Notes under the pieces: generated by a model
Database searches by the model: none
Told to the model about the DNA's origin: nothing
The model's input: only the letters and a program-made list of their open reading frames with translations
Shown: in pieces, positions 18,013-57,400 of the stretch
Layout: the number at the start of each line of letters is the position of its first letter
Numbering within the stretch: the stretch's first letter is position 1
Program-made: the position numbers and the translations under genes
IMG/VR virus record: IMGVR_UViG_3300035670_000071
Reading direction: 5' to 3' (one strand)
From: a virus
Lineage: Duplodnaviria; Heunggongvirae; Uroviricota; Caudoviricetes
DNA length: 64,000 nt

Positions 18013-19608
18013 TTGAACCGCAATTTATCGGCGATGGAGGAAAATACAATGGCAAGATTTAATGCTAAAATATCAGAGTCTACAAAGACTACAAATCACG
18101 AAGGTGCAATAGCTTACAAGCTAACACCTGAACTTGAGCTATACGCTACAGTTTGCACTGCATCATTGCAGGACAAATTCTATGAAAAGGCAGATGAAAC
18201 TCTAACAAGAATCAGAGCTTTAATCAAGAAAGTCGACCCTATGTTCGTTGCTAAGTTAGCAGTCTACGCAAGGGAACAGATGTATCTTAGAAGCATTCCT
18301 TTAGTCCTTGTCATAGAACTGAACAAGCAGGTAGAAGACAAGTCTTTAATTGTCCCACTTACAAAGAGAGTCATCCAAAGAGCTGATGAGATTACAGAGC
18401 TTCTGGCATACTACCAGACAGCAAACCCTCAGAACGCTAAGGAAGTTAAGGGCAACAAGAAAAAGCTCTGCAAACTATCTAAAGCCCTATCTAAAGGCAT
18501 TGCAGAATCATTCCATAAGTTTGACGAATATCAGTTTGCTAAATACAATACTGATGGCGAAGTTAAGCTAAGGGACGCTCTGTTCTTGACGCACCCTAAA
18601 CCAATGAACCCAACAGAGGTTGCATTGTTCAAGAAGATTGCACAGGACACACTGGACACTCCTTACACTTGGGAAGTAGAATTGTCTACTGCCAAGGCTA
18701 AAGGCAAGGAGAAGAAACAAGTCTGGCAAGAACTTATTGATTCCAATAAGCTTGGCTATATGGCCCTATTGAGAAACCTGAGAAATATACTTCAGGAAGA
18801 TGTCTCAAAAGAGCATATGATTAAGGTAGCTAAAGCTATTTCCGACCCTGAACAGGTAAGGAAATCCAAGCAGCTTCCGTTCAGATTCCTATCGGCCTAC
18901 AAAGAACTTGCAGGTTCCGCAAAGAAACGAGGCTATTCAAGGTCTGATGATGAAACAAAAATCAACAGCCCTTACGTTAGCCTTATGCTTGACGCACTTG
19001 AGGACGCTATTGCTGTTTCAGCAGAGAACGTGCCTGGCTTCGGCTATGACACGAGCATCCTGATTGCATCAGACGTTTCAGGTTCAATGCAAAAGCCTGT
19101 ATCTGAAAAGAGTAAGATTGAGAACTATGATATAGGCTTGACGCTATCAATGGTATTGCAACACAGATGCAAGGTAGTCCAAACAGGTATCTTCGGTGAC
19201 TCCTTTAAGATAAAGGCACTCCCAAAGAAGGCTATATTGGCTAACGTGCTGAAGCTCTACGAAATTGAAGGCGAAGTCGGCTACTCAACAAACGGCTACA
19301 AGGTAATCAGACACCTTATTGAAACCAAACAAAAGGTTGACAAGGTAATGATTTTCACTGACTGCCAAATGTGGAATAGTGACGGCGATGGTAGCACTTT
19401 CGTAAAGGAATGGAACACATATAAGAGTTTCAACCCTTCAGCGAAGTTATACCTTTTCGACCTTAGCGGTTACGGCAATACTCCAATCTCTACAAGAGAG
19501 AAGGACGTTTACCTGATTGCGGGTTGGTCTGAGAAAGTCTTCGGTGTGCTTTCAGCACTCGAAGAGGGCAAGACTGCGATAGATGTAATCAACAAGGTGA
19601 CTCTATGA
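18013..19608 (+). CDS. Ro60/TROVE-domain ribonucleoprotein with C-terminal vWA domain (Rsr-like)
   Basis: TROVE-type N-terminal region (HEGAIAYKL...YAREQMYLRS) and a vWA MIDAS motif IASDVSGSM; the likely true start is the ATG near 18049 behind a GGAGGA ribosome-binding site. Confidence 0.8.
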   Translation: MNRNLSAMEENTMARFNAKISESTKTTNHEGAIAYKLTPELELYATVCTASLQDKFYEKADETLTRIRALIKKVDPMFVAKLAVYAREQMYLRSIPLVLVIELNKQVEDKSLIVPLTKRVIQRADEITELLAYYQTANPQNAKEVKGNKKKLCKLSKALSKGIAESFHKFDEYQFAKYNTDGEVKLRDALFLTHPKPMNPTEVALFKKIAQDTLDTPYTWEVELSTAKAKGKEKKQVWQELIDSNKLGYMALLRNLRNILQEDVSKEHMIKVAKAISDPEQVRKSKQLPFRFLSAYKELAGSAKKRGYSRSDDETKINSPYVSLMLDALEDAIAVSAENVPGFGYDTSILIASDVSGSMQKPVSEKSKIENYDIGLTLSMVLQHRCKVVQTGIFGDSFKIKALPKKAILANVLKLYEIEGEVGYSTNGYKVIRHLIETKQKVDKVMIFTDCQMWNSDGDGSTFVKEWNTYKSFNPSAKLYLFDLSGYGNTPISTREKDVYLIAGWSEKVFGVLSALEEGKTAIDVINKVTL

Positions 19609-23406: not shown

Positions 23407-23928
23407 TTAATCATCTTCTGATTCATAGTCAGCAATGATTTCAAGGAATCTCATTAGCATAGCTATTTCCATATCTGTCAAGATGATTCTGCTCGTGCAG
23501 AGATTCTTTCTCAACTGCTTCATATCAGACTTCACTTTCTTCCAATCTATACTATCATCAATAGTCAACTGGAAAGTGTGACCTCTCATATGCGGCGGTA
23601 GATGTTCGGAATCTGCTAATACGATAGCACGTTTCGCCCTGTGGAATCCTTGGTGACAAGTCTTACACAAAGTAAGGCAATTCCTTCCGCTATCCTTCCC
23701 TCCGTTCTTCTGGAACTTTACGTGGTGCAAAGTAAGATGAGACTCGGGGTATTTGCATTCGGTATTTTGGCACTTGAAGTTATCTCTCTGGAATACCTCT
23801 GCTTTGATAACATACTTATCATAGATTCTTTGTTTGAGTTCGCTTGTTAGTCTATCATAGCTTCCGCTATCCCAAGACTTAAAATACTCGTCCATTGATA
23901 CAACTTTCCTAAATACTTCATATGCCAT
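23407..23928 (-). CDS. HNH endonuclease
   Basis: KCQNTECKY...HHVKFQKNGG...CKTCHQGFH. Confidence 0.65.
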   Translation of the reverse strand: MAYEVFRKVVSMDEYFKSWDSGSYDRLTSELKQRIYDKYVIKAEVFQRDNFKCQNTECKYPESHLTLHHVKFQKNGGKDSGRNCLTLCKTCHQGFHRAKRAIVLADSEHLPPHMRGHTFQLTIDDSIDWKKVKSDMKQLRKNLCTSRIILTDMEIAMLMRFLEIIADYESEDD

Positions 23929-23963: not shown

Positions 23964-24039
23964 TGAGCTGGACGGGATTTGAACCCGCAGCCACTCGATT
24001 AAAAGTCGAGTGCTCTAAACCAGGTTGAGCTACCAGCCC
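23964..24039 (-). tRNA. tRNA-Lys(UUU)
   Basis: Hand-folded cloverleaf; anticodon loop CTTTTAA; T-arm GCGGGTTCAAATCCCGT. Confidence 0.7.
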
Positions 24040-24042
24040 GTA

Positions 24043-24115
24043 TACCCGCACTGAGATTCGAACTCAGATTTGACGGTCCGAAGCCGACTGGACTTGTCCC
24101 TTATCCTATGCGGGT
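24043..24115 (-). tRNA. tRNA-Arg(UCG), putative
   Basis: Anticodon loop CTTCGGA with one U-U mismatch in the stem; canonical T-arm. Confidence 0.5.
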
Positions 24116-24821
24116 GTTGCCTTTCTCTGCTTCCAACATATTTACTAACTGATACACACCTGTCAATCCACCATATTCGTTACGTTCTATCCGACCTATT
24201 TTGGCTAAATTATATGTCGACAGTGTATCAAGGAATCGTTGTTTATAGACAAAGCTGATGCTCAGATATATGCTCTCTGCATTCAGCTCCTTCATATATT
24301 CATTGATTCGTTTGAACCAGTGCGTTATTTCATTGTCACGTATACGACTGAAACGTGCAGCCGATTGTCCTCCTTTCTTATGTTTGTGTGGCACTTCGCT
24401 GTGGATGTCGATGAGCTTTTTTATCTCTCCATCACTCATAACCTGTGCCCCGTAACATTCTTCAAGGTCGATGATTAATATTGTATACATCAGAGACGGC
24501 TCTCCACCGAATGTGAGAAGTTCCTTTCCACAATAATAATGCTTTGTCTTTCGCTTGTAAGGCTCTACTGTGAAATTCTCATCATCCCAAAAGAGACTAA
24601 CTCCAGATATACCAGGGTTGGAACTAAAGATAGTGTGCTATCTTATTGAGTCCCGTAAGTGTTTCGATACGGGTCTTGTTATCTTTTATGTTCCGTGCAG
24701 AACATATCTCTTTTCCAATGTCTGGTGCGTCTGCACCAACTGGTATGTGCATACTTATCATTTTCGTTCCTCCATATATTTTAGTGGACAGACTGGGATT
24801 TGAACCCAGGTTCTCTCGCAT
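24101..24821 (-). CDS. eRF1/aRF1-type peptide chain release factor (N and GGQ domains only), split across two frames at a CUU-UAG site
   Basis: N-part GTKMISMHIPV and CSARNIKDNKTR resemble the eRF1 motifs GTSMISLIIPP and TASNIKSRVNR. After a +1 shift at UAUCUUUAGU the frame stays open through YYCGKELLTF to KKGGQSAARFSRIR, which resembles eRF1 GRGGQSALRFARLR. Confidence 0.6.
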
Positions 24822-24858
24822 ATCAGGCGAGTGCGTTAACCAACTTTGCTATCTGTCC
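24785..24858 (-). tRNA. tRNA-Ile(GAU)
   Basis: Anticodon loop CTGATAT; canonical T-arm and acceptor; weak D-stem. Confidence 0.65.
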
Positions 24859-24860
24859 GA

Positions 24861-24931
24861 TGGGAATACTGAGAGTCGAACTCAGGGCTTCTGGTCTGGA
24901 GCCAGATAGGTTGCCACTACCCCATATCCCC
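24861..24931 (-). tRNA. tRNA-Trp(CCA)
   Basis: Anticodon loop CTCCAGA. Confidence 0.65.
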
Positions 24932-24932
24932 T

Positions 24933-25008
24933 TGGTGCCGCCGACGGGATTCGCACCCGTGTCCCGACATCGAAAGTGTCGGATGATTGGCTTCTACACT
25001 ACGGCGGC
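24933..25008 (-). tRNA. tRNA-Glu(UUC), CCA encoded
   Basis: Anticodon loop CTTTCGA; T-loop TGCGAAT, which carries G55. Confidence 0.65.
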
Positions 25009-25011
25009 GTA

Positions 25012-25084
25012 TGGAACCGTCGGGATTTGAACCCGAACCAATAAGGCTTCAGCCTATCGCACTCCCAGGTTATGCTACAGTTCC
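25012..25084 (-). tRNA. tRNA-Phe(GAA)
   Basis: Anticodon loop CTGAAGC. Confidence 0.7.
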
Positions 25085-25086
25085 AA

Positions 25087-25162
25087 TGGTGGGGCTGGGC
25101 GGATTCGAACCGCCGTCTCAGGTTCCAAAGACCTGAATGATTGGCCACTACACTACAGCCCT
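25087..25162 (-). tRNA. tRNA-Gln(UUG), CCA encoded
   Basis: Anticodon loop CTTTGGA; A1-C72 mismatch. Confidence 0.6.
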
Positions 25163-25169
25163 ATGTTGA

Positions 25170-25241
25170 CGCTGGTGACGGGAATTGAACCCGTGTCCCG
25201 AAGTAGACAGCCTCGGATGATAGCCACTACACCACACCAGC
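25170..25241 (-). tRNA. tRNA-Asp(GUC)
   Basis: Anticodon loop CTGTCTA; G73. Confidence 0.65.
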
Positions 25242-25244
25242 ATA

Positions 25245-25317
25245 TGGGGATGAGAGGATTTGAACCCCTGTCGAGTGGTCCCAAACCACTAATGCTTCCA
25301 AGCTACACCACATCCCC
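25245..25317 (-). tRNA. tRNA-Pro(UGG)
   Basis: Anticodon loop TTTGGGA. Confidence 0.7.
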
Positions 25318-25318
25318 G

Positions 25319-25392
25319 TGGTCTGCACTGCCTGAGTTGCACAGGCCTCCTCTGGGTTACAGCCAGTTGGCACACTCCGTGCCTTAGTGCAG
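25319..25392 (-). tRNA. tRNA-Tyr(GUA), short variable arm (type I), CCA encoded
   Basis: Anticodon loop CTGTAAC; 4-nt variable region; T-loop TGCAACT, which carries G55. Confidence 0.55.
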
Positions 25393-25397
25393 GTAAA

Positions 25398-25469
25398 CAC
25401 CCGTGCTGGGAATTGAACCCAGATTTAGAGGTTAGAAGCCTCCTGTCTTATCCTTTGGACGACACGGGT
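25398..25469 (-). tRNA. tRNA-Arg(UCU)
   Basis: Anticodon loop CTTCTAA. Confidence 0.6.
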
Positions 25470-25472
25470 ATA

Positions 25473-25549
25473 TGGGTTACAGGACGGGAGTTGCACCCGC
25501 TTCACCAGTTCCACAGACTGGTATGCTTTGCTGTTACACCACCTGTAAC
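25473..25549 (-). tRNA. tRNA-His(GUG) with encoded G-1 and CCA
   Basis: Anticodon loop CTGTGGA; G-1 pairs with C73; T-loop TGCAACT. Confidence 0.65.
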
Positions 25550-25579
25550 ATTGTCCGATGTTTTTATTTACGCATTCGA

Positions 25580-25671
25580 TGCACCTGCTGGGAGTCGAAC
25601 CCAGGGTCTCACGGAATCTTCGCCGTGAAATGGCATATAAGCCGTGTGCCTTACCACTTGGCCACAGGTGC
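25580..25671 (-). tRNA. tRNA-Ile(UAU) with a 20-nt intron-like insert at the anticodon loop
   Basis: Canonical acceptor, D and T arms; anticodon stem CACGG / CCGTG separated by CTTATAT plus a 20-nt insert that repeats CACGG. Confidence 0.5.
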
Positions 25672-25674
25672 AAA

Positions 25675-25747
25675 TGCGGATGTCGGGATTTGAACCCAAA
25701 CAAACTGCTTGGAAGGCAGTTGTGCAACCAGGTAACACTTCATCCGC
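25675..25747 (-). tRNA. tRNA-Gly(UCC), discriminator A73
   Basis: Anticodon loop CTTCCAA. Confidence 0.7.
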
Positions 25748-25750
25748 ATA

Positions 25751-25822
25751 TGGGCGAAGCAGGAGTTGAACCTGCGTCCTCCTCTTTGTAAGAGAGGTGT
25801 CATACCGTTAGACCACACGCCC
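25751..25822 (-). tRNA. tRNA-Val(UAC)
   Basis: Anticodon loop CTTACAA. Confidence 0.6.
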
Positions 25823-26143
25823 TTTATAGGTTAGCCTACTCTTGATAATTGTTCATAGAATTTGCAATCCAGAATTTTATTCTGGTATTGTTGCTCAAAT
25901 CAAATGTGTTTAGAAATTCTGAATCGCAAACCTTTGGGAACAATCACCATTGATATTGAAACGGCCTTCCGACTATTACGATGCCTGTTTCTCTATCCTG
26001 ATGTTTTACCAGTGTTTGATTCATAGTGAGTATGATTATGCAGGTTATATATAAAGTTTTCTTTTTGGAAACCCAAAGGGCACTTCCTAAGAAGCACCCC
26101 GTGGGAAAAGAGGTGATTCTATAGTTTATGTCATAGCTTGTAT

Positions 26144-26156
26144 TTATATATATTTT
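26144..26156. promoter_or_regulatory. TTTATATATATTT TATA-like motif
   Basis: Member of the recurring AT 15-mer family found in intergenic regions. Confidence 0.3.
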
Positions 26157-26160
26157 TCTA

Positions 26161-26244
26161 CGCTGAGAAGGGGAGTCGAACCCCCATATCCATTCCTGGA
26201 CGGCACCTTAGCAGAGTGCTGGGCCACCATTACCCAATCTCAGC
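26161..26244 (-). tRNA. tRNA-Ser(GCU), type II
   Basis: Anticodon loop CTGCTAA; long variable arm; G73. Confidence 0.7.
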
Positions 26245-26396
26245 ATTAATCTTTCAATGGTAGATGATGAATGATGCTATCTTCAGGCAGTGGCTCACGG
26301 AACCACATATGTATCTTGTTTTCTTTGAAGGCTCTAACTACTGCGGAGTCATCGTCTTTAAATTCAAAGTCATCTGGACCATCCTCGTCTACCATA

Positions 26397-26480
26397 CGCT
26401 GTGAGCAGGATTCGAACCTGCGACACACTTCCGTGTGCGATGGTTTTCAGGACCATTTGCTCACCATTCGCCTTCACAGC
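26397..26480 (-). tRNA. tRNA-Ser(UGA), type II, putative
   Basis: Anticodon loop CCTGAAA; long variable hairpin CACAC-GGAA-GTGTG. Confidence 0.55.
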
Positions 26481-26486
26481 ATTATA

Positions 26487-26571
26487 TAGGGGGTAAGGGA
26501 TTTGCACCCTTGTATTACCTACGTAAACCAGATTTTGAGTCTGGTGCGTTTGACTACTCCGCCAACCCCCT
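26487..26571 (-). tRNA. tRNA-Leu(CAA), type II
   Basis: Anticodon loop CTCAAAA; long variable arm; T-loop TGCAAAT. Confidence 0.65.
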
Positions 26572-26576
26572 ATGAA

Positions 26577-26661
26577 TACGGGGAGAGAGATTTGAACTCT
26601 CGTAGCACCTATGTGCAACAGCTCTTAAGGCTGCCTCGTTTGACCACTCCGACATCCCCGT
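26577..26661 (-). tRNA. tRNA-Leu(UAA), type II
   Basis: Anticodon loop CTTAAGA; long variable arm. Confidence 0.65.
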
Positions 26662-26666
26662 ATAAG

Positions 26667-26739
26667 CGGTGAGGGTGAGACTCGAACTCACAGTTCCTTG
26701 GTTAACGGCCAAGAGCCTTACCTGTTTGGCCACCTCACC
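26667..26739 (-). tRNA. tRNA-Asn(GUU), putative
   Basis: Anticodon loop CCGTTAA, with C33. Confidence 0.55.
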
Positions 26740-26744
26740 AATAG

Positions 26745-26815
26745 AGGTCCATCTGGGACTTGCACCCAGGTTTTGTGGGTTGCAGCCACACGCCTTGCTA
26801 CTTGGCCAATGGACC
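26745..26815 (-). tRNA. tRNA-Cys(GCA)
   Basis: Anticodon loop CTGCAAC; U73; T-loop TGCAAGT. Confidence 0.65.
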
Positions 26816-26818
26816 ATA

Positions 26819-26893
26819 AGCCGTCGACGGGATTTGAACCCGCATAGACCTCTTTACAGGAGAGGTGCCTCAGCCGAGTTAGACTACGACGGC
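26819..26893 (-). tRNA. tRNA-Thr(UGU), putative
   Basis: Anticodon loop CCTGTAA; enlarged D-loop. Confidence 0.5.
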
Positions 26894-26898
26894 ATATA

Positions 26899-26971
26899 TG
26901 GACACTGCGGGAATCGCACCCGCCGCCTCCTGTGTGCAAGACAGGCGTTCTACCTTATGAACTAAGTGCCC
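26899..26971 (-). tRNA. tRNA-Ala(UGC)
   Basis: Anticodon loop CTTGCAC; G3-U70 identity pair present; T-loop TGCGATT. Confidence 0.7.
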
Positions 26972-26977
26972 TTTGGA

Positions 26978-27062
26978 TACGGGAAGCAGGATTTGAACCT
27001 GCGTATCACCTACGTGAACTTGGTCCTAAGCCAAGTGTGTTTGACCGCTCCACCATTCCCGT
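26978..27062 (-). tRNA. tRNA-Leu(UAG), type II
   Basis: Anticodon loop CTTAGGA; long variable arm. Confidence 0.65.
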
Positions 27063-27075
27063 GTTAAATAAATGA

Positions 27076-27176
27076 TACCGATGGGCGGATTTGAACCGCC
27101 AAATCTCAAGGTTATGAGCCTTGCGGGATGCGAACTTTTACATTCTCCAAGTTACCCTACATCGGTATATTAAGTC
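27076..27176 (-). tRNA. tRNA-Met(CAU)-like with an extra segment of about 25 nt in the D-arm (possible non-canonical intron or pseudo-tRNA)
   Basis: Acceptor ACCGATG/CATCGGT, anticodon loop CTCATAA and T-arm GGCGGTTCAAATCCGCC are canonical, but the D region is about 27 nt too long. Confidence 0.4.
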
Positions 27177-32581: not shown

Positions 32582-33166
32582 TCATAAAAGTTCAAGGGTA
32601 TAATCACAGCTCTTCGCCAAGATGCTCTGATGAGTTACAAGAAGGACAGTGATATGCTTTTCCATACAATAGTGCCTAACTTTCTTATATAATTGAGTAT
32701 ATAGATTCTCGTCAAGACTCTTGAAAGGTTCATCAAGTAATAGAATATTGGGTTCTACAATAAGTGCCCTAATAAGCAATAGCCTTTGTTTCTCTCCACC
32801 TGAGACCTTATCTATGCTTTTACCAAGATGTTGCTCTACATTGAAGAATTGGGCCATTAAACGCATCCTGGAAGTATCATCTGCTGATACCTCCCTCCCT
32901 TCAAGTTTCAAAGGCAAAAGAAGATTCTCTTCAATAGACAACCAAGGCATCAACCTATCTTCCTGAAACATATACGACAGCTTACCTTCTGCCGTTATCT
33001 CTCCCTCAAATTCCTCAAGCCCTGCAATACACCGCAGAAGCGTTGTCTTCCCAATACCGCTTGGGCCAACGATGGCTGTCATCTTTCCTTCAGGTGCCGT
33101 AAAAGAGAAGTCCTTATGGACTTCAAGACCCCCATACTTCTTGTGGAGATTTTCAATCTTTAACAT
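32582..33166 (-). CDS. ABC transporter ATP-binding protein (NitT/TauT family)
   Basis: Walker A GPSGIGKTT, ABC signature VSGGEKQR, Walker B LLLDEP. Confidence 0.75.
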   Translation of the reverse strand: MLKIENLHKKYGGLEVHKDFSFTAPEGKMTAIVGPSGIGKTTLLRCIAGLEEFEGEITAEGKLSYMFQEDRLMPWLSIEENLLLPLKLEGREVSADDTSRMRLMAQFFNVEQHLGKSIDKVSGGEKQRLLLIRALIVEPNILLLDEPFKSLDENLYTQLYKKVRHYCMEKHITVLLVTHQSILAKSCDYTLELL

Positions 33167-33893
33167 ATGAAAAGAACCTCCTTTGTGTATATCTCAATAT
33201 CCAATCTATAACTAATCCTATCAAGACAATCAATAATACTACAGCAAACAGCTTAGGGATGTTAAGGAGTCTATAATAGTTGTTTACCATAAACCCAAGC
33301 CCATTTGTTCCTATGAACAATTCTGCAGTCACAACAATCTTCCAAGCCACGGCATTTGACCTTATGATTCCAAGAAATATTGGTGGCATCATCTGTGGAA
33401 ATATGATATATCTAAAAATTCGTTTCTTGTTTTTTGTTATCGTGCTTCCATATTCGAGAAGCTGTTTATTGATATTTGATAACCCTAATTGCACGGCAAC
33501 AAATATGTTTGGCAATATGACCATCACAATTATAAAATATGGTGTTACCCACGATAAACCAAACAATACAATTCCTATGATTGTCCATACTGCTGACGCA
33601 AGAAATTGACTTGGATAAAAAATCATATCCACATATCCTGCTATCTTAGGATAGAAATATCTCAACGAGCCTATGAATAGCCCTACAAGTGTTGCAAAGA
33701 GTAGAGAGATATACACTCTTTGTGAACTTAAAAATACATTCTCCCACGTCCTTGTCTTAAACAACAAAGAGAAAAATTCTGAAATAATTTCAGACGGAAC
33801 TGGGACTATAAAATTATCTACGCTTATCTCCCATACAATTAAGATAGCAAACGCAAAGACTATCTTAAGCCAATTCCGTCTTAGCCAATTCAT
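33153..33893 (-). CDS. ABC transporter permease (NitT/TauT family)
   Basis: Six or more TM helices; conserved EAA-like loop. Confidence 0.7.
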   Translation of the reverse strand: MNWLRRNWLKIVFAFAILIVWEISVDNFIVPVPSEIISEFFSLLFKTRTWENVFLSSQRVYISLLFATLVGLFIGSLRYFYPKIAGYVDMIFYPSQFLASAVWTIIGIVLFGLSWVTPYFIIVMVILPNIFVAVQLGLSNINKQLLEYGSTITKNKKRIFRYIIFPQMMPPIFLGIIRSNAVAWKIVVTAELFIGTNGLGFMVNNYYRLLNIPKLFAVVLLIVLIGLVIDWILRYTQRRFFSYVKD

Positions 33894-33900
33894 TGTCTTC

Positions 33901-34878
33901 TCAGATAAATAAAGTATCTGTTGTTACAATGTAGTCTAACACACCCTCAGAATAAGCTGTTCCAAGTATAGCTTCCCAAGCAAACCAATCTTTATAGTTC
34001 ATCTTGTCAAGCCTTATTTCATACTTAGCTTTTTCTAAAAGGAAGTCATAATCGTCTCCACTTTCTTCAGCTTCAAGTCGTGTTATCTCTTCAAGATGTT
34101 CCTGACTCCATTCATAGTTTGCCCTGAAATATTTTATTGCATCGTCATATATCTCAGGATTCTTTTGATATTCATCATATCTTGCAACAAAGAATTTCGC
34201 AGGAGGAACCGTCCCATAGAACTCGTTCATCTCTTTTCCAAAGTCAAGCACTGTCTTATATCTGCTATCAAAGTCTGAAGCAAATATGAAATCACTATCA
34301 AACATTGCTGCATCAATTTCTCCTTTCTCTAAGAGTGCAGGTGCATTCTCTGAATCAATTCCAATGAACTCTATTCTGTCCAAATCTAAATTATATATCT
34401 TGAACAGAACTGTCTTCATAATTAATGTAGAACCATCTGTTGCTCCTTGAATACCTATCTTTTTTCCATAGAAATCTTTTGGCCCATTGATTGAAGAACC
34501 TTTCAAAGCAACAACTTGTCCGACGCTAAATCCTTTAGGTCCTACAATCTCTCTATAATATGGTGCGAGAACTTTAAATTTCTCTCCTTCATTATAGGCA
34601 ATAGCCAAATTAACTCCACTCAATACTCCTATCGTCGGTGTTCCTTTTGTAGCAAGTGTATAAAGCTCTGCTTGATTATAGCTGCTTTCTACAATCTTTA
34701 CATTCACACTTTGTGGTTCAGGAACTTTTCCTTCGTGTAACGGATAGAATATTGGATTGAAACCAACACCTGTCACAACAAGGTTTAAGTCAGGTCTTTC
34801 ATCTGGTATCTTTGGTTCGTTTGTGCATCCTGCCAGGACCAGAATCCCCAGCATTAATGCCATTATTACATATTTCAT
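33901..34878 (-). CDS. ABC transporter substrate-binding lipoprotein (NMT1/SsuA-like)
   Basis: Lipobox LVLAGCTN; periplasmic-binding-protein-like fold inferred from family resemblance. Confidence 0.6.
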   Translation of the reverse strand: MKYVIMALMLGILVLAGCTNEPKIPDERPDLNLVVTGVGFNPIFYPLHEGKVPEPQSVNVKIVESSYNQAELYTLATKGTPTIGVLSGVNLAIAYNEGEKFKVLAPYYREIVGPKGFSVGQVVALKGSSINGPKDFYGKKIGIQGATDGSTLIMKTVLFKIYNLDLDRIEFIGIDSENAPALLEKGEIDAAMFDSDFIFASDFDSRYKTVLDFGKEMNEFYGTVPPAKFFVARYDEYQKNPEIYDDAIKYFRANYEWSQEHLEEITRLEAEESGDDYDFLLEKAKYEIRLDKMNYKDWFAWEAILGTAYSEGVLDYIVTTDTLFI

Positions 34879-36107
34879 TTTCGGCCTCCAAATCGTCTGT
34901 CATAGACGACCTTTGTCTTTTCCCCATTGAGCTTCTTATTCACGACTTCCATCGGACAGAATAGCCCAAGCCCAACTCCTTCACTCCAAGTATACTCCTC
35001 AGAGATTTCGAAGTTGTTAGCAAACGTATTTGCAAGGGTGGGTAAGACTCCCCTATCAACATACTCTGGAAGAAGTTCAACATACAACGTGAACTTTGAT
35101 TTCACGAGGTCATCGTCTTCTATCTCTTCCACAGTAATCTGATAATCACCAGTTATATATTGTTTTATTGATTTAATCGCATCATCTATTCTGTCTTTGA
35201 ATATAGTGATGCCTTTCACCTTAATCTCATCTGATGCTCTACCGACCATATAGTATTCACGCATCCCGCAATCACATATACCACCGACCCTGAATAGGTC
35301 TTCTGTGTCATACCTGATTATTGGATTCTCAGTTGAGAGCTTGGTGATAATAAGTCTGCCGACCTCACCTTCTTCAGCATACTTATTGTTGTCTGCAATG
35401 AACTCATAATAAAAATCTTTCGGAAATATATGGTATATATTGCTTTCTATAGTATGTCTGCACTGATACATTGATATAGCTGTCTCTGCCATACCATACT
35501 GCTGAATTATCTTTGCCTTTGGATAAAGCTCCTGAAGCTTCTTTCTTACAGGCCCAGACAATACGCTACCTGCCAAAAGCCACTTATCAATACCATCATA
35601 TCCAAGAATGTTTAACATAGACGCAATCTTCAAAGCTACAGGCGGGGTCGTTCTGATGGCATTTATCTTAGCTTCCATAATGACCATTGCAGTGGTCTGC
35701 AGGTCATACGGGTTTCCTAAGAACACCATAACACCTGCCTTAGCAAAGTGTCTGGCAAACGTATACGCAAGAGTATAATTATTTATTATCGCTACTCTGT
35801 CTTTTTTACTTCCCTGATTAAGATAGAAAGCTGTCTTTGCGAATCTTGTTGCAGACTGCTCAATCTCTTTCTCTGAACGATAGAATATGGCCACTTGTGA
35901 TGACGTTCCAGAAGTCAATCGTGCAAATACTGCACCTTCAATTGTATCTATACCGAAATCAACATTAGAAGTTTCAAGATTATCAAGAAGCATATGTTTT
36001 GATATAATAGGAAGACGCTTAAAATCCTTAAGGTCGTAACCCTTATACAGCTCTTTATAGAACTTTGAGTCGGCTGCCGCTAACTCTACAATGTCTCCCT
36101 TATCCAT
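34875..36107 (-). CDS. adenylate-forming ligase, PaaK/coenzyme-F390-synthetase-like
   Basis: LTSGTSS (A3), QQYGMAETA (A5), YDTEDL (A8-like). Confidence 0.6.
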   Translation of the reverse strand: MDKGDIVELAAADSKFYKELYKGYDLKDFKRLPIISKHMLLDNLETSNVDFGIDTIEGAVFARLTSGTSSQVAIFYRSEKEIEQSATRFAKTAFYLNQGSKKDRVAIINNYTLAYTFARHFAKAGVMVFLGNPYDLQTTAMVIMEAKINAIRTTPPVALKIASMLNILGYDGIDKWLLAGSVLSGPVRKKLQELYPKAKIIQQYGMAETAISMYQCRHTIESNIYHIFPKDFYYEFIADNNKYAEEGEVGRLIITKLSTENPIIRYDTEDLFRVGGICDCGMREYYMVGRASDEIKVKGITIFKDRIDDAIKSIKQYITGDYQITVEEIEDDDLVKSKFTLYVELLPEYVDRGVLPTLANTFANNFEISEEYTWSEGVGLGLFCPMEVVNKKLNGEKTKVVYDRRFGGRK

Positions 36108-47960: not shown

Positions 47961-48404
47961 TTAACTCCTTATGTCCTTACCTGTCCACATTACCCAGGCA
48001 GCAACTATATATCCTATAGTCAATATTGTCTTAAGTATGCCAACAATAAATGTTGATGAATCTGATGTCATTTTACTTATGATTACGGCATTCAAAACAT
48101 TAATGAACCCAAACATATAATTATCAACTGCATTCAAAAATCTCTCTACAAACCCAAGGCTTAAAGTATCCAATACTCTGTAGATTGCGTTACCTCTATC
48201 TTCAACTGCTCCATCTGGTGTAATGCTTTGATTTAATTGCCCAGTGAATCCTTCAGTATATTTCTCGTCGTAATCAAGCCCACTTCTATATTCTGGCCTA
48301 TCAAATATTTTATCTCCATTGGAATCAACAACTAAATTTATCATTATACCAGTAGCTAAGTTGAGCATAATACTAAACAACATCAACTTAATTACTGCGT
48401 TCAT
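47961..48404 (-). CDS. membrane protein
   Basis: TM helices at both ends. Confidence 0.45.
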   Translation of the reverse strand: MNAVIKLMLFSIMLNLATGIMINLVVDSNGDKIFDRPEYRSGLDYDEKYTEGFTGQLNQSITPDGAVEDRGNAIYRVLDTLSLGFVERFLNAVDNYMFGFINVLNAVIISKMTSDSSTFIVGILKTILTIGYIVAAWVMWTGKDIRS

Positions 48405-51400
48405 TTTGTTTCCTTCTCCCCTTCTTTAAGGATTGCTATTAATGAAATAAGTGCTGAAAGCAACAATACTCCCATACTCAATCCAAGCCATCCGAAGATG
48501 ATGAACAGAGTGGCAAAGCCTATCAATATTATGCTTAGGATGTTTGCTGTCTTTATTGTTCCGATTATTGCAACAACACTCAGGAATAACAGGAAGAACC
48601 AATTCAATGCCTCTTGTGTTATATCCTCTGGTAATTGTATTCTATAATTCTTGAACAAGAAGAACCCTGTTGTCTTCTGCCCTGAAGCGTGTGTTATATT
48701 CATAGATACCGACATTGTTGTGTTTATATAACTTGGAGGCAATAATTGCTGGAACTCATAAGCATATGACCCATAATCAGATGAATAAGTTGGTGTTCCT
48801 GTAAATGTATATAACACAGGACCGTCTGTATTTCCTTGGTGAACTGTAAATGTAACACTTGTTGTTGCATTCTCTGCATCAACATATCTACCAACAACAT
48901 AAGTATCATTTCCTTCTTGTTGAAGAGTTGCACCATACACGACATTATTGTAATATCCAAGGTTCTCTGTTGCAAGAGATATATCGTATAATCTTAATGT
49001 CTTATCTCCACCTACATCAGCAGCATATATTCCCATTTCTCTTACAGGCTGGTTATCACTGTGAATCTCAATTATGTATTCCTGATTCTCAATCAAGAAC
49101 GCACCAATCTTTCCTTCAACATCTGTGTAGTCTGCTGTAATCTGAACCTTATTATTCTCTATCAATTTATTGATATAAATTCTTGGATTATCATATTGGC
49201 CAAGCAAGTCATCTATAGTGAAGGAACTGTATATGTATGATGTCGAACTTATCTCAATCAAATATATGCTCTGGTTGAAAGCATCTTCTGGTGGTGTAAG
49301 GAAAGTTCTGTAATATCCGCTTGTTCCATATGTCAATAGGAATTTGAACTTTTCATACGCACAGGTGATTTCAACTGTTTGTGTATTATTTGTAAGCTCC
49401 TGGATTCTTGTGCTATCTTCACAGAACACAAGGAACTCTACCTTATCTGGTTTTGTCATATCAAAAGGCAATAATGTCTTCTCATCATAAAGATTTATCA
49501 ATGAATAAAAGTTCATATCAAGAACATATGTTTGCTCTTGTTTATACGTGAAAGTATATGTTGTGTTCAAATCTATGTATCTTGTCTTTTTAGCCAAAAT
49601 GTTTGCTGGTGCAGCATCAACAAGAACAGTCAAATCGTATGTTCCTGTAGGGAAATACTGACTATTTGTATAGTTTCCAATTGTGATTGACATATTTAAG
49701 TCGTCCAATAATTCTTGTGTCTTTACATCTCTCAACTGGAATGTTATCTTAGCCTGATATGACTCATAATCCTGTTTGACAAGATTTGCCCCAAGAGTTT
49801 TCCAATGAACTCCTTCTTCCCATAATCTGTTTGCGAAAGGAACACTTCCTTCAATATCAGTCATTGTCAACCAAGCACCATCATCGCTGCATTGGAATAC
49901 CATTGTATTCTGTGCTAACGAATCTTCAAACCCAACTCTTAATTTTAAATTGTTATCAGCATCATCAAGGCATTCATCCTGTGGTGTTATATTTAATCTA
50001 TCATTGCTTGATACTCCAACAGCTACTTCCCATACAGGAATAGATTCAGCAACCATATCATATGTCATATAATAATATTTGAAACCAACTGTATTTGTAA
50101 CAGATGAATAGCTTGTCCAATTGGCATCTATTGCATTTCCAAGATTAACCCATCCAGGGTCATCTACATATGTTCCACCATTTGTATAGGCAACAGTATT
50201 ACCCACAGTTCCTGTGCAACTTCCACCTATATCAGCAGACTGTTGGAAACAATCATCAAACTGTGTTGTTATATTTACTCTATATGTTTGGTCAAAGAAC
50301 TGAGGATGTGAAAATGTCAAATCATAAACACCTTCTGGTAATCCTTCAACATAATTTGTAACAGTTGTATTATATGTCTGATTAAATGTTGCTCCAGGAG
50401 TTCCTGAAACAGTAACGACATTCACAGTATAATTTGTAAATGTTGAATCATCAAACACATTCACACCAGTCACATTTACTGCTCCACCTATATAGAATAT
50501 CCAGCTTGTTTCTTGAATATTAGTTCCTCCTATTGAGAAGAACTCATAAGTATCAACACCATACGTCGCAACCTGTTGCTCTGGTGTCAAGCTATTTGGA
50601 GGCATAACAACAGAAACAGTAATATCATATTCAAAGTCATTTACCTTCACTATAGTATATTCAAATTCAGTTGATGGGTTTGCTATCTCCTCAAAGTCGA
50701 CCCAGTTACCATCTTTTGTTTCAGAGTTCCATATTACAAAGTGACCATCATACTTGCTGTTTGGTCTGTTGTAAATCAAATCTCCATTTAATGATTGAAG
50801 TGTAAATGTTCTGCTTAATGATTTATTCACAAAATCAAACTGGAATGTATATCTGTCGGTTTGTTTTGTTGTGCTCTTTGAAGATACATCATATGGATTT
50901 CCTGCATATACTACTCTTGCTCTAATATCAACATCTGTGTCATATTCAAGACCAGCAGTTATTGGTGTAACTTCATAATCTGGAATTACCATATCTGTAT
51001 GGTCATCTGACGCACTTGCATTAAATACACATCTTTGCATTGGTAATCCTGTTGTGTCTACAACGTGATTGTGTTCAAACAATGCACCATTCTGTGATAA
51101 ACCATTCTCATAAAGATACTTCATATAATATACTTTGTTCACAGAACTTACAAATGTTGTGTCATCAAAATAGAATCTTATTCCATTGATGCTATCATTT
51201 ATATCAATTGTCTGTGTCTGCACTCCAGTAGCTCTTGTGTGAGTCCTTACTGTAGTCCATCCAACACCATCATATGTCTGCACAACAACTCTTGCATCCT
51301 GTGTTTCAACTTGGTATTGAAGACTTGATACATAATAGAATGAATCAAATGTCTGTCCAACCCATCCTTGTGTCAGGCCTGTATTACTTATTGTTGTTGT

Positions 51401-54400
51401 AGAGAATGTAGCATCATATACATCATATGATTGTGAATGATTAACTGTGTTCTGATATGTTGCATCATAATTGAATACTTCTACATCAATATCTTCCCAT
51501 TCATATATCAATCCATCAATATCACAATCTATTCTCTCATACGCCTGGAATAAATTGTAATCAAAGTATTCTACATTAAGAGATAAATCTCTTACTGCAT
51601 TTGAATGAGCAGAAACATTATCTGCTCTGAATCCATTTTCATCCCCAAGTGATATTAGTGGTGCTGTGTTATCTTTAACTTCAAATGTCTGTAAAGCTCC
51701 TTGGAATGCATTACCAGCATCATCATAACATATTGCTGTCCAAGACACTTCACTCTTATCCTCAGCATATGATAATGAAATATCTCCTGTTGTATATGTT
51801 GTCTCAAGAGGAACCTGGAGATTTGTAAATCCATTTGCTCCAGCAGTAACTACACATATATTTGAATCACAACTTACTGTAGGCATATCATCAGAATATT
51901 TTCTTACAAACATCCAATCTATTGTTCCTTTAGTATCTGTTCCTGATGTTCCTCCAGCAGTTGTATCTCCAATCACAAGTGGAACACCAACTGTTGGAAT
52001 GTTTGTTGTTAAAGTATATTGTAATGCATCGTTTGCCCAGAAAGATGAATCTCCATCTTTCCATACAACTTTATATTTATTATATGAATCACTTACAGCT
52101 TGACTTGCTGATTCGCTGATTACACCATACTTATATGTCTTGAAAACAAATGCATCCTGAAGAGTTCCTATCTTCATCTTTCCTATAGTATTTGATGTTC
52201 CTCTTCCAAATCCTACTTCAAGTGGCCACTCTTCTGCAGTATAATCTCTTTGATACCATTCAAGTATAGCTGGGCTATTGAATGTTCTTGTTGTTATGAA
52301 GAAGTCCTTGTTACTCGAATCCTCATCATAGAATGTCATCTCTCCTGAGCCATATGTCAATGTTGTTGACTCTGTTGAAATTGGTTCCCACGTTTCTGAA
52401 TCTATTGGATTACTATCAAATGGTTCAAAAAACTCAAATACTTCTTCTCCATTCTGAGCATAAGTATCGAAAACATTGTTTGTGTTATCCATAACAATAG
52501 TTATTGTTTCTCCAGCATCCATAGATAATTTTGTCCATACAACATTTCCTGTTCTGAAATAATCAGGATGATTAACTGCATCTCGTATGCTATAAGGTCT
52601 TACTTGGAAATCCATATCAACAGTAGATGTTTGTGCATTTACTGTGTAATTTGCAACCTCTTCATATCCAGTTCCAGTATCATCAACAAGCAATGAACAC
52701 ATATCAACATTATCATCGTCTTGAACATCAATTGTAAGAGTTATTGAATCTCCTATTTCTGGGAATAATATATTCTCATTTGACGCATATGTATTTATCA
52801 AAGGAGGAGCAAGGTCAAAATTATAAGTTCTATTCTCTGATGTCACAGTATAATTTTGCCCTATAGCTGAACACTGAATATTCCAAAGATATTCATCATC
52901 AACTACAGGCCAGTTAGAAGCTGATTCCCAACTTACATTTCCTTCTGCTTGTAGCTTTTCTGTGAATATAATATTTCCATTGTCATAGTTCTCTTGGTAT
53001 GTAAAGTAATCTGAAGCAGAATCATAATCTCCTGCATATGAACATAATCCAGAAGGATAAGTATCCTCGGTTCCTGCAGTGCAAGTTGTTGGATACCATC
53101 TTAAATTGAATGTATCACACTGGCCGCAATCGTAATCTCTCTTTTGACCAAGGGCTTGTGCACAAGCAAGATTTGCATCTGTTCCACCTGTTCTCCAGTA
53201 TCCTTCATAAACTCTTCTTTCTGTTGTTGTTGAATAATAGCCAATATTATCTACAACATAATCATTCGTCTTCTCTGTTCCTGGAATGCAAGTATTTGTG
53301 CTATAAAGCTGATATGAATCTGTAAATGAATCTCCATAATCAAGAACCATCGTTCCGTGTTCATCTCCACCACCGTGGTTACACGCTGCTTGAGAAGAAG
53401 CCCAATAATATTGATATACTGTTCCAGAACATACTGTATCCGCATCATCTGATAATCTCAAACATACGTGGTTGTGGTCTCCAAACTCAGATTGCCCGTG
53501 GTCGAAGTTACCATCAAGTTCTGCATTTGCCATATCAACATATCCTATTCTCTCCCAGTTGAATCTGAATCTATATTTATCGCTATTTTCAATAATTGAT
53601 TTATTTATCTGCCCTGTAGATAAAACATCGCCAGGGCCATATTCACCAGATGTATATGTGTTACAACTTCCAGGAACTGTTGCTCCAGTCCAATCCTCAA
53701 GGCATACTTCAAGTGGATAATCAGGAACAGGTGCAAGTGTTATATCTCCAAGGCATCCTTCACTCATTGCCATCTGTGTTATCAAATAATTGAATACTAC
53801 AGTCAATCCATAATCTGTGTTTACTCTATCAGTATCTATGTGACCATAAGAACCTACAAACTGTCCATTCGCATTTAAGTCACAAGTTATTCCACCATCA
53901 TAATCTGTTACACTGAATGTTGTAAAGAATGGCTCGTTGTCAACCAATATAGTTTCTGGTGCTGTAACATTCAGATTCTCAAGAGGATATACTGATACCT
54001 TTGCACTGCCCTGCAACTTATGAACATTTTGATTAAACACATCTATATAACATTTCCATTGTTCATAATTTGCTAAGTCATCTGTAACTGAACCAGTGCC
54101 TGGTGTCGTTGTATAAAGTTGTCCTCTATTAATATTATAAAATGTATAATCATAATCATTTACATTAACATATGTTTCTGTTGGATGATAGCTAAATTTA
54201 ATCTGTTTCGCAAATGGTTCGGATTCATCAAGCATTAACATTAATCTCAAATATAATGTATCTCCAACAGTAACCTCATCCTCACTTACAAACTCAGTCC
54301 AATCATTCCATACATCATAAGGTGCACTTGCAGTCAATGCATTATATTCTTTTACATCATCTTCTGTCATTCCTACTGAAAAGAATTGCACATCGTCCAA

Positions 54401-57400
54401 AGAACCATCAATAAGTTGATTGTAATCTGTTCCGTTCCAATGTCCACCAAATGTTATTCTGTTTGTAGTTGTTCCAAGATTTGCTCCACTAACAGTTCTT
54501 ATTGATGGGTCAACAACACCATTCACATATATGTTTTTAGTCAATCCATCATATACAGCAATTATTTCATAATCGACTCCTGTAGTCAATACATTGGTTG
54601 TAGTCAATACTGACCCACTCCAATCATCGCCTGTATAGAATATTAGCTGTCCAAGATTGTTTACTGCTAATCTGAAGTTCTGGTCTCTCTCTAAAATAAC
54701 AGCTTCTGAAGTAGGTAACGAATCAAGATTAAGTTGCCCAATTATTGATAATTCTGTTAATGCATCAAACTTTGTATTTGAAGAAACTACAAACACAGAT
54801 TCGTTGCTCACTATATCTAATGACGAATTATCAGTTCCAAATCTATCTGTTCTGAAGCTTGGCGTTCCTTGTGCACCGTGTATGTTAAATAAATATGAAT
54901 CATATATTGACTGTTGAGTAAACTGATAATATGCAAATTGACTATTTTCATAATCGTCATCAGCATCATAGAAATTCTGCACAACTCCTCCTGATAATTC
55001 ATAGCTCAACTTAAATCTATCAACTTCATCTGGAGTAATGATATTTCCTGTTATGAAGTTATCATCGGCTTCATCATATCCATCATATCCGTTCTTTCCC
55101 CATACTCTGATATTATTTAGATACCATCCATAGTTCTGGTCATCGTGCCCATAAACTTCTATCTTAAGAACTGGTTTTGTTGGATTTGGATTTGTGTGTG
55201 TGAAATCTCCGCAACCAGCTTGTGTTCCTGTATTTGTTGTTGGTGTTGCGTCTCTATAATACCATCTTGTATATGAATAAGCGTTGTTCGCATATTTACC
55301 AGCATTCGCACAATGTGTCATCACAAGTTTTTCAACATCATAAGGTGCTGGAATTGGCGGACTGTTTATTGTTGAAACAAGATACCAACCAGTAGAATAA
55401 ACTGTTCCTACACCACCATCTGTAAACATATGTGTGTATTGAGCTGGAATTAGAGTATATGATACTGTTCCATTTGATGCTTCAGAATATGCTGATGTTG
55501 ATGTTATTGTATCTACATACGCATCATCATTCAAATATTTTTCAAACCAATCATTATTGTCTACTGCTTTTTTCCAAGAAACAGTTACATCAATATTATT
55601 ATATGTATCATCATTAGTCACGTTGAAACTGCAACTTAATTCTGTATCAAACTCTGGATACAACTCGTTTATGACTACCTCATTTACCTTCACTACATCA
55701 TCATAGAAAAGAAGTGGATTTCTTCCTGCAAGAATCTCTGCTCTATCTTCCTCTCCACCCTCATCAGAATCGGCAGATAAAGGATTTGTATAATATACAT
55801 AAAGTTCTTCATAATCATTTAATGCATCCCCATCTGTGTCTGACAATAAAAGAACGCTATCAGAAGGAAGATTGAATATAACAAATCCAGGCTGATATTT
55901 TCCTATTCTCTGATTTGTTCCTTGCCCTTCAATCTGTAATCCAAAATCATATATTTCTCCACCAAGATTATCACTTAAATCAATAGGTGTAAACTCCTTG
56001 AAACCAGCAATCAATGTCTGTTCTTTTGTGTCTCCGAAAAATGCTGGAAGAGTGATAGTCAAATCCTTATTGATTATATTTAAGTCCCCACTTATATTTG
56101 TCTGCAACTCAACTTGATAATCTGTCACATCCTGATTTGCAGTCAAAACACATTCATTGTTTGAGCAACTTACAGTAACTGGTTCTCCTGGAAGATACTT
56201 TCTTATTCTTGTGCTATCCTGAACATAATCCACACCATAGTCATCTGAACCAATCTTTAATGTAGCCTCATTTGAATATGTTGAATTGTAAAGAAGAGTC
56301 CAAGTAAGTCCACCATCTCCACTTATCTCATATAATGCACCAGACTCTGTTGTTGTCTTTGCTGTCAGTCTTACCTTGTAGTTTGTTCCTCTTACAAAAT
56401 TCTGAACATTCACAGTTCTTTGCACGTTATCTTCATATGTTCTGATGTCTACACCATTGTTATCATAAAGACCATATATCAGATTCGCATATTCATCTCC
56501 TGCTGTGGTGTCGTGCCATCCGAACATTCTATTGGCACCAGTTCCTGCAAGAGCCTTATAATCGTGTTCAAGAACATATCCTGTTGTTGCAGTTCTTACA
56601 AAGTTCGCTACAGTCCAAGGTCCATATGACCCCCAAGCTGCTCCTGTCCAGTTAAACAATAACTGGTCTGGATATGCTGGTGAATTTACGTGATAATTTG
56701 TAGCGTCATAATTCGCCCATCGTGCAGGATTCAATGTTCCATCTGTCACATCATCATATCCGTCAAAGAAAACAAATACTTCTTCTGGGTCTTCTGCATA
56801 TGTAAATGAATCTGATAATTTTAATGTGATTGAATCTCCTGCATCCATAGATACTTTTGTCCATACCTTTGAATTTGATGCATCATTTGTTTCTCTCCAA
56901 TATGGATAACCATAAGCTTCAAACACATCTTCCTGTGTTACCTTTGTTCTTTCAAAAGCATTAAACCCATCTTCATAATCTTCCTTGTATACAAATATAT
57001 CATTACCAAGAGTTGAAGGTATTGTAAATTCAAGTTGATAATCTTCAACTGACTCTGGTGCATAAACTGTGCATACATTACCATTACAAGTTACAACAGG
57101 TTCTGATGCTGTTGGCACGTGCTTTCTCACATACAGATATTGAACTCTTCCTGCTGTGTTCCAAGATGCTGTTCCACCAGCATATACATTTCCTAATACA
57201 AGTGGCATAGCTGTTGTTGGAACATTGTAATCAACTTGATATTCAAGAGTATTTCCAATTACAAGTTGAGCAAGACCACTACTCCATACAACTTTATGTT
57301 TTGTGTATGTGCTGCTACCAACAGTTTGTTTTGAAACATTAGCTGTATTATAATATGATGTTGCTCCTACCTTTGATAATAACTTGAAATAATCCTGTGT

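Follow-up and report, generated by a model that had tools for sequence, protein, structure and literature searches.

Release factor genes in which a stop codon gates a +1 ribosomal frameshift are known from giant viruses and from bacteria. After readthrough of a UGA codon, the eRF1 genes R726 of Mimivirus and mg280 of Megavirus need a +1 shift, demonstrated experimentally, at CUU UAG C or at CUU UAA C (Jeudy et al. 2012, PMC3521657). The present analysis concerns a 64,000-nucleotide stretch of DNA, IMG/VR record IMGVR_UViG_3300035670_000071 (hereafter the window), whose minus strand carries, inside an array of tRNA genes, an eRF1/aRF1-type release factor gene that is interrupted by a UAG codon and continues in the +1 frame. 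Shifty +1 sites also occur in eukaryotes, as in CUU AGG C of yeast Ty1, AAA UAA/UAG of Euplotes and UCC UGA U of antizyme. In bacteria, the autoregulatory +1 frameshift of prfB, the gene of release factor 2 (RF2), was reportedly described by Craigen and Caskey in 1986 and by Baranov et al. in 2002.

In a 2021 review of archaeal recoding, a single -1 case is listed as demonstrated and a single +1 case as suspected (PMC8211752). Burroughs and Aravind (2019, PMC6514570) described mobile aeRF1 homologues, including one baeRF-1 family that keeps the N-terminal (N) domain and loses the C-terminal (C) or Pelota domain; neither phages nor frameshifting are mentioned in that paper. Besides the giant-virus paper, the literature yielded no frameshifted eRF1/aRF1 from a phage or an archaeal virus, nor did it yield a description of the family presented here. 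Among known systems, the eRF1 gene of Mimivirus and Megavirus comes closest, a parallel that the preliminary description of the window had drawn and that proved apt, the published motif CUU UAG C being identical (PMC3521657), whereas prfB is a mechanistic analogue. Altogether, it is likely that in the window a shifty-stop +1 frameshift makes the synthesis of a mini release factor that works without a GTPase depend on the efficiency of termination at UAG.

The interrupted gene and its joined product

Direct reading of the sequence confirmed that an open reading frame (ORF) on the minus strand ends at UAG, with the +1 frame open beyond it. The gene has the following parts:

24769..24773, minus strand: Shine-Dalgarno (SD)-like GGAGG, read directly, 7 nt 5' of ATG 24761
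24624..24761, minus strand: ORF0, 45 codons plus TAG, kept in 23 full-length relatives
24623..24632, minus strand: +1 frameshift site UAU CUU UAG U, with UAU in the E site, CUU in the P site and UAG in the zero-frame A site
24101..24625, minus strand: ORF+1, 174 codons plus TAA, encoding the remaining N domain (YxCxxxL) and the entire middle (M) domain (GGQ)
24681..24692, minus strand: NIKD motif, counterpart of NIKS in eRF1, with Ile and Lys invariant in the family
24518..24538, minus strand: YYCGKEL, counterpart of YxCxxxF in eRF1, with Tyr, Cys, Gly and Leu invariant
24365..24373, minus strand: GGQ motif of peptidyl-tRNA hydrolysis (GGA GGA CAA), with G130, G131, Q132 and S133 invariant

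ORF0 runs from ATG 24761 to TAG 24626..24624, with 45 codons before the stop, and frame 0 reads MISMHIPVGADAPDIGKEICSARNIKDNKTRIETLTGLNKIAHYL. Beginning at 24625, the +1 frame has no stop before TAA 24103..24101; its translation is SSNPGISG...YYCGKELL...KKGGQSAARFSRIR. At the junction the minus strand reads CAC TAT CTT TAG T, and the A-site codon after a shift would be AGU (Ser). Conceptual joining of the two ORFs gives a 219-residue product; the predicted trans-frame protein would contain IAHYLSSNPGISG, with IAHYLSSNPGISGVSLFWDDENFTVEPYK as the junction peptide predicted for the +1-shifted product.

The true start codon is ATG 24761 and not ATG 24821, with which the longest mechanically listed ORF begins, because GGAGG stands 7 nt upstream of it, all homologues begin MI[ST]xHIP in the alignment of relatives, and a stop codon abuts the ATG on its 5' side in one of them (L046). 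The gene therefore does not overlap tRNA-Ile(GAU), and the residues GTK before MISM lie outside the protein. Both features had been attributed to the gene in the preliminary description and are artefacts of the longest ORF.

The joined product is an eRF1/aRF1 homologue that consists of a shortened N (stop-codon) domain and a GGQ-containing M domain of RNase-H-like fold and has no C domain, as had been supposed; profile and fold searches agree on the homology. Alignment of the joined product to eRF1 profiles, the test set beforehand, confirmed the homology. The Pfam model eRF1_2 matches the 219-residue product with 39.9 bits (gathering score 27.1), and it is above threshold and the best Pfam match in 23/23 reconstructed full-length members. 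A family profile built from these 23 sequences aligns at positions 1-206 with residues 34-269 of human eRF1 (E ~1e-9), and its top match in the PDB is archaeal aRF1 (4af1, 6e-13). As the profile score comes mostly from the M domain, the N part was compared separately: an N-only hhalign comparison of the first 88 family residues with the N domains of cellular 364-residue aRF1 gave a probability of 95%, with an E value of 3.5e-8 over 81 columns. Pfam eRF1_1 has no match at E<=0.01 among the family members. The eRF1-like N-domain motifs noticed at the outset hold up as well, NIKD and YYCGKEL being the counterparts of NIKS and YxCxxxF. Invariant throughout the family are a Glu six residues before NIK (E18), I25, K26, Y75, C77, G78, L81 and GGQS.

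Structure prediction by AlphaFold2 gave a model with a mean predicted local distance difference test (pLDDT) score of 82.8, in which the M domain is above 90 and the N domain between 53 and 84. Structural similarity search of this model using Foldseek revealed human eRF1 (1dt9) as the first match, with an E value of 1e-11, followed by other eRF1/aRF1 chains; Balon and Pelota scored below these chains. Compared to cellular aRF1 of 364 residues, about 29 N-terminal residues comprising the first helix and the GTS-loop region are gone, in addition to one internal loop and the whole C domain. The protein thus starts at the equivalent of M34 of human eRF1, and the N-terminal helix and GTS loop are missing in all family members. 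In eRF1 the GTS loop helps to read the third base of the stop codon, and the C domain binds aEF1alpha/eRF3 and ABCE1. No Pfam match to the C-domain model eRF1_3 was found, and the protein stops about 10 residues past the M domain. Among related Pfam models, acVLRF1 is above its gathering score, though never ahead of eRF1_2, and baeRF_family10 matches 3/23 members at E<=0.01, with 16.3 bits for the window protein against a gathering score of 27.1. PHROGs contain no meaningful match for the release factor.

Conservation of the shift site and a model of slippage

A metagenome scan found 37 close-family loci, of which 31 hold both halves of the gene; codon counts at the site were taken over 30 non-identical genes. 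Analysis by tblastn revealed that an N part in frame f is followed by a C part in f+1 in 31/31 two-half loci as well as in the window. The loci L065/L066, L067 and L068 also fit this arrangement, and gene callers predict a separate 45-residue ORF 5' of the main ORF in L065, L066, L067 and L068. At the junction the zero frame always ends in NTT, a stop codon (TAG or TAA) and a pyrimidine. The P-site codon is CTT in 23 genes, ATT in four and TTT in three; the stop is TAG in 29 and TAA in one, with no TGA; and the base that follows it is C in 20 and T in 10. The A-site codon of the +1 frame is always AGY or AAY. These preferences depart from codon usage elsewhere in the same genes: Leu at the P site is CTT in 23/23 cases, compared to 20% of Leu codons elsewhere, and the AGC:AGT ratio of 19:10 at the site is reversed elsewhere (128 AGT versus 45 AGC). 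The E-site codon is TAT in 24/25, weakly above a background of 79% (p ~0.02).

In most genes the shift site is codon 45 (..H-Y-L-stop). In six loci it is codon 38 (..G-L-stop, GGT CTT TAG), and the old position there reads in frame; a rough neighbour-joining tree does not group these six loci into a single clade. In two close relatives, P0001 and P0006, the gene is uninterrupted and has TAT CTT AGC, which is exactly the predicted Y-L-S junction, and each is nested inside frameshifted clades of the same rough tree. In a collection of 5.8 billion proteins, 35 of the 37 close homologues are the downstream ORF alone (123-178 residues), several of which begin with xIIFS (MHIIFST...), the +1 reading of xAT TAT CTT TAG T. 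Exhaustive search with a hidden Markov model (HMM) found the leader xxFS (UAG) or xxFN (UAA) in more distant representatives as well, some of them 245-263 residues long, along with a wider set of in-frame relatives with a short N part. By contrast with these collections, 50,697 phage records gave no megablast match to the region, scans of IMG/VR with the protein and with the alignment gave no relative, and no close member came from a scan of 185,579 species genomes, which was limited by its search pattern and gives no host assignment. Nearest in the last scan were aRF1 of Heimdallarchaeia (26-29% identity) and VLRF1-like genes of Dehalococcoidia.

As the arrangement is conserved in all related loci with both halves, to an extent that chance would not produce, the interruption is very probably a programmed frameshift. 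The expectation that related contigs would keep the CUUUAG site was borne out: the great majority of relatives retain it, in place of in-frame or degraded copies, and about 35 loci carry a shift site, with two close in-frame relatives beside them. A sequencing or assembly indel in the T run, or a decaying pseudogene, might also explain the interruption, and removal of one T (CTTTAG to CTTAG) does restore the frame, precisely as the two close in-frame relatives read; one locus (L028) has in addition an extra in-frame TGA in YxCG. We nevertheless give this explanation almost no credence, because the stop and the +1 continuation are present in all of about 35 assemblies, which are independent, stem from different samples and are 42-99% identical. 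Both halves are clearly conserved at the protein level, the site occurs at two codon positions, and a stretch of only three T is not prone to errors. The extra TGA of L028 (~1840, contig SDBT01256111.1) replaces the invariant Gly of YxCG (YYC*K), with the CTT TAG site kept; the copy may be defective, the TGA may be an error, or recoding may take place a second time.

We propose that the ribosome pauses when its A site contains UAG, which is decoded slowly, and the peptidyl-tRNA is on CUU (in relatives also AUU or UUU). The peptidyl-tRNA would then slip by +1 onto UUU, AGY (Ser) would be decoded and translation would go on; re-pairing with UUU is possible because the P-site NUU is followed by U. 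The pattern of NUU, U and stop, with AGY or AAY in the +1 frame, is characteristic of slippage in the P site at a slow stop, and from it we infer the slippage. Termination at UAG would instead release an inactive 45-residue peptide, and the full-length factor would be made solely via the +1 slip. Since the slip would compete with termination at UAG, the output of the factor would go up when termination is slow and down when it is fast. Two tRNAs encoded in the window could take part in the shift:

26978..27062, minus strand: tRNA-Leu(UAG), candidate P-site tRNA for CUU
26160..26245, minus strand: tRNA-Ser(GCU), which reads AGY, with a putative role at the site

By analogy with yeast Ty1, the tRNA-Leu(UAG) of the element might pair with CUU by U:U wobble in the P site, and its tRNA-Ser(GCU) might be the incoming tRNA for AGY in the +1 frame.

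The joined protein might be made by another route, such as quadruplet decoding of CUUU by a special tRNA, transcriptional slippage or translation as two separate polypeptides, all of which we regard as very improbable. The arrays do include unusual tRNAs, with abnormal anticodon loops according to ARAGORN, but quadruplet decoding would not need the conserved zero-frame A-site stop. The T runs at the site measure 3-5 nt, which is too short for transcriptional slippage. For separate translation, an ATG with a GGTGGAG motif on its 5' side is present at M91 of the window gene; however, M91 is not conserved, start codons close to the junction are lacking in many of the +1 ORFs, and the N-domain fold requires both halves.

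Stop-codon reassignment was also considered and rejected. ORFs in the standard code cover 83% of the window, which has no signs of recoding, frame 0 after the TAG meets a further TAG and then a TGA and has no eRF1 similarity, and no CUA suppressor tRNA is present in any locus. A hairpin upstream of the site in the window, AAGAUAG/CUAUCUU, was rejected as a conserved element as it is not supported by covariation in relatives, in which the choice between AAG and AAA for Lys does not follow the P-site codon.

True self-feedback, in which the mini factor would itself terminate at UAG, has in our estimate an even chance. Tentatively, the mini factor might instead be unable to read UAG, and the site would report the activity of host aRF1; the factor would then be switched on as host termination capacity drops in infection, or where UAG is ambiguous. 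The missing N-terminal helix and GTS loop favour this host-sensing explanation. So does the choice of stop, UAG in 29/30 genes and never UGA, in a window where, among 78 crude gene calls, 36 end in TGA, 30 in TAA and about eight in a genuine TAG; moreover, the viral release factor of Mimivirus goes up as host eRF1 goes down (PMC3521657). However, the stop-contacting Glu, the I-K of NIKS and YxC are kept, and their retention means that a loss of UAG recognition is not implied.

The tRNA array, neighbouring genes and probable host

The gene is enclosed by tRNA genes on its own strand, as first described, in this order:

23964..27062, minus strand: array of 23 tRNA genes, all on one strand, enclosing the gene
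24784..24858, minus strand: tRNA-Ile(GAU), directly upstream, ending 22 nt before the start codon
24043..24115, minus strand: tRNA-Arg(UCG), directly downstream, its first 15 nt overlapping the last four codons and the stop

The overlap with tRNA-Arg(UCG), on the same strand (24115..24101), stands as reported and is shared by L001 and L002, whereas the gene ends a few nucleotides before the next tRNA in other relatives. In most related loci the release factor gene likewise lies in a same-strand tRNA array. The biggest related contigs measure 91 and 183 kb.

Recurrent neighbours in the relatives are genes for RNA ligase, metallophosphatase, Ro60/TROVE, HNH endonucleases and integrase. The Ro60-like protein, taken together with the RNA ligase and metallophosphatase genes that lie near the release factor gene in L046, L065 and L068, suggests a module of RNA repair or quality control. 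A stop-independent factor for ribosome rescue, hibernation or the response to tRNA damage, like Dom34, baeRF-1/Balon or VLRF1, could work with such adjoining RNA-repair genes, the frameshift simply setting a low level of expression. Apart from the recurrent RNA ligase, metallophosphatase, Ro60/TROVE and tRNA genes, this view can draw on acVLRF1 being above its Pfam threshold, on Balon being among the fold matches, and on the conflict-related rescue roles proposed for laterally spread aeRF1 homologues (Burroughs and Aravind, PMC6514570). We find it unlikely. In contrast to Dom34 and the majority of baeRF-1 families, no member of this family departs from the stop-contacting motifs or from GGQ; every full-length member matches eRF1_2 better than any other Pfam model, with the baeRF models under threshold; and a shift site based on a stop codon suits a termination factor.

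Other genes of the window were also inspected. A Ro60-like protein with a TROVE domain (1.6e-33) and a Ro60 vWA domain is encoded at 18013..19608 on the plus strand and at 14659..16173 of L067. An HNH endonuclease gene lies just 3' of the tRNA array (23407..23928, minus strand), and HNH genes are also found near the release factor gene in L067 and L068. At 32582..36107 on the minus strand is an operon-like group of overlapping ABC-transporter-like genes for an ATPase (PHROG 293), a BPD_transp_1 permease and an NMT1/THI5-like binding protein; together with the adjacent gene for an AMP-binding-like enzyme, they would be unusual cargo for a virus-like element. A single ORF of 4044 residues occupies 48401..60535 on the minus strand, with a DUF2341 segment as its sole family match, and the adjoining ORFs of 891, 935 and 731 residues have no match in Pfam or PHROGs. 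PHROGs yielded almost no matches for the large neighbouring ORFs. As for stop codons, TGA is the commonest in the window at 38% G+C, where dominance of TAA is expected, and TAG is mostly followed by G or C.

The host was approached through the tRNAs. The tRNA-Tyr genes are of class I with a short variable arm and have C1:G72 and A73 in 5/5 cases; tRNA-Trp has G1:C72 and A73, tRNA-Gly has A73, and tRNA-Gln has A1:U72 and A73. A gap in the array at 25318..25396 (minus strand) holds an unannotated tRNA-Tyr(GUA)-like sequence with the acceptor stem CTGCACT/AGTGCAG (C1:G72), A73 and encoded CCA, which was missed by ARAGORN and Rfam and has an aberrant T loop, TGCAACT. At ~27081..27160 on the minus strand, a tRNA-Met(CAU)-like sequence with A1:U72, whose D region contains a large insert, is a candidate initiator tRNA, scoring 24.8 bits in Rfam and thus under the gathering score of 29. 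A1:U72 is a trait of archaeal and eukaryal initiator tRNAs.

In addition, a 95-nt tRNA at 25578..25672 on the minus strand (Rfam tRNA, 61.8 bits; untyped by ARAGORN) reads as tRNA-Ile(UAU) and carries a 20-nt insert, UGCCAUUUCACGGCGAAGAU, right after nucleotide 37, where a bulge-helix-bulge-like fold is possible, like that of archaeal tRNA introns. The observation extends to 13004..13098 of L067 and 698..791 of L006, and tRNA-Arg(ACG) of L067 has a similar 20-nt insert at the same place. GGAGG- or GAGGT-like motifs precede most ORFs of the window, and such SD motifs together with overlapping genes correspond to a prokaryotic gene organization; with the archaeal-type tRNA-Gln they speak for a prokaryotic host. 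On account of the tRNA identity elements, which are of the archaeal and not the bacterial kind, the SD motifs and the overlapping genes, the host is probably an archaeon and not a bacterium, and the gene would therefore encode an aRF1-type factor of the host's own kind. The carrier is most likely a virus-like element that replicates in an archaeon. Counts of sigma-70-like sites (17 found versus 17.6 expected) are, like those of archaeal TATA boxes given below, uninformative on the host domain.

Proposed function and comparison with known systems

The mini factor would probably supplement or replace host aRF1 in infection, needing no GTPase partner, and would round off the set of about 23 tRNAs that the element itself brings along for decoding. 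We consider it quite doubtful that the factor has instead an altered stop specificity (for example dedicated to UAG or blind to it) in a GTPase-free form, or terminates without ABCE1. With altered specificity, the virus would reset the reading of UAG and the other stops in hosts where UAG is ambiguous or poorly terminated, such as pyrrolysine-decoding methanogens, and the UAG shift site would be a sensor of the host's UAG decoding state; termination without recruitment of ABCE1 would lead to re-initiation on tightly packed, overlapping genes.

Several points weigh against a frameshift-controlled mini release factor of an archaeal virus. Concerning the shift, no SD-like stimulator is conserved near the site, where the upstream bases read AAY AAR ATH NNN CAY and include no conserved G-rich element, nor is any RNA structure, the downstream z-scores being ~0 and RNAalifold giving nothing. 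Frameshifting and release activity are both predictions for this family. Concerning the factor, the missing GTS loop means that UAG recognition may be lost, in which case the circuit would sense host aRF1, and an omnipotent release factor offers no obvious reason for favouring UAG over UGA. An RNase P cut at the 5' end of tRNA-Arg would, moreover, strip the stop codon from the mRNA. Concerning the host, tRNA identity rules are the only basis of the call: the analysis brought up no host genome, no CRISPR spacer and no hallmark protein of archaea, and TTTAWATA, the archaeal TATA motif, is not enriched (17 found versus 13.4 expected). No capsid or terminase gene was recognized in the window either, so that the term virus is itself our deduction.

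Comparison with the eRF1 genes of Mimivirus and Megavirus revealed that both systems have a viral class-I eRF1/aRF1-type ORF broken by a stop codon and continued by +1 at CUU UAG/UAA C, keep the NIKS-like, YxCxxxF and GGQ motifs, and belong to viruses that also encode tRNAs. In a fold search against BFVD, giant-virus eRF1s were the sole matches, with no protein of a phage or archaeal virus. The two systems differ in that the window gene has a single recoding event, its 45-codon ORF0 having no internal stop, and encodes a two-domain protein of 219 residues with a shortened N domain, in contrast to the three-domain proteins of viruses with eukaryotic hosts. In addition, the gene lies inside a tRNA array, within a prokaryotic gene organization and among archaeal-type tRNAs.

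With prfB, the gene shares the heptamer UAU CUU U, the stop and pyrimidine that come after it, a short ORF for the N terminus ahead of the +1 main ORF, a site kept in most but not all members, and a link between the synthesis of a termination factor and the efficiency of termination. The recoding had initially been called bacterial-RF2-style, which holds for the shared UAUCUUU-stop motif and, with regard to mechanism, as an analogy only: the upstream SD-like stimulator that prfB needs, 3 nt before the shift codon, has no conserved counterpart here, and the ribosome is probably archaeal. Moreover, the fold of RF2 is unrelated, and the stop in prfB is the RF2-specific UGA, compared to UAG (rarely UAA) in this family.

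Similar to the baeRF-1/VLRF1 clades, including Balon, the family consists of laterally mobile aeRF1 homologues outside the canonical role. The catalytic Gln is missing from most baeRF-1 families but belongs to the invariant GGQS of this one; the baeRF models stay under threshold, and the stop-codon domain that is absent from acVLRF1 is kept. The sites of Ty1, Euplotes and antizyme resemble the proposed shift in the +1 slip of a wobble-paired P-site tRNA next to a slowly decoded A-site codon, and in Ty1 CUU is likewise read by tRNA-Leu(UAG); they belong to other genes and organisms, and none of them is known to control a release factor.

Overall, shifty-stop-gated release factor genes are already known, and what is new is a minimal two-domain aRF1 in the tRNA arrays of putative archaeal viruses. 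It would be the third setting of a stop-gated +1 release factor gene, after prfB and giant-virus eRF1, and the near-identical motif of UAU CUU U, stop and pyrimidine in all three points to convergence across ribosome types. For archaeal translation, the site may also be the first conserved case of programmed +1 frameshifting. As a natural minimal aRF1 of about 215 residues with N and M domains only, the factor would show what stop recognition and GTPase-free release need, and it would add a termination factor to the tRNAs among the translation genes known from non-giant viruses.

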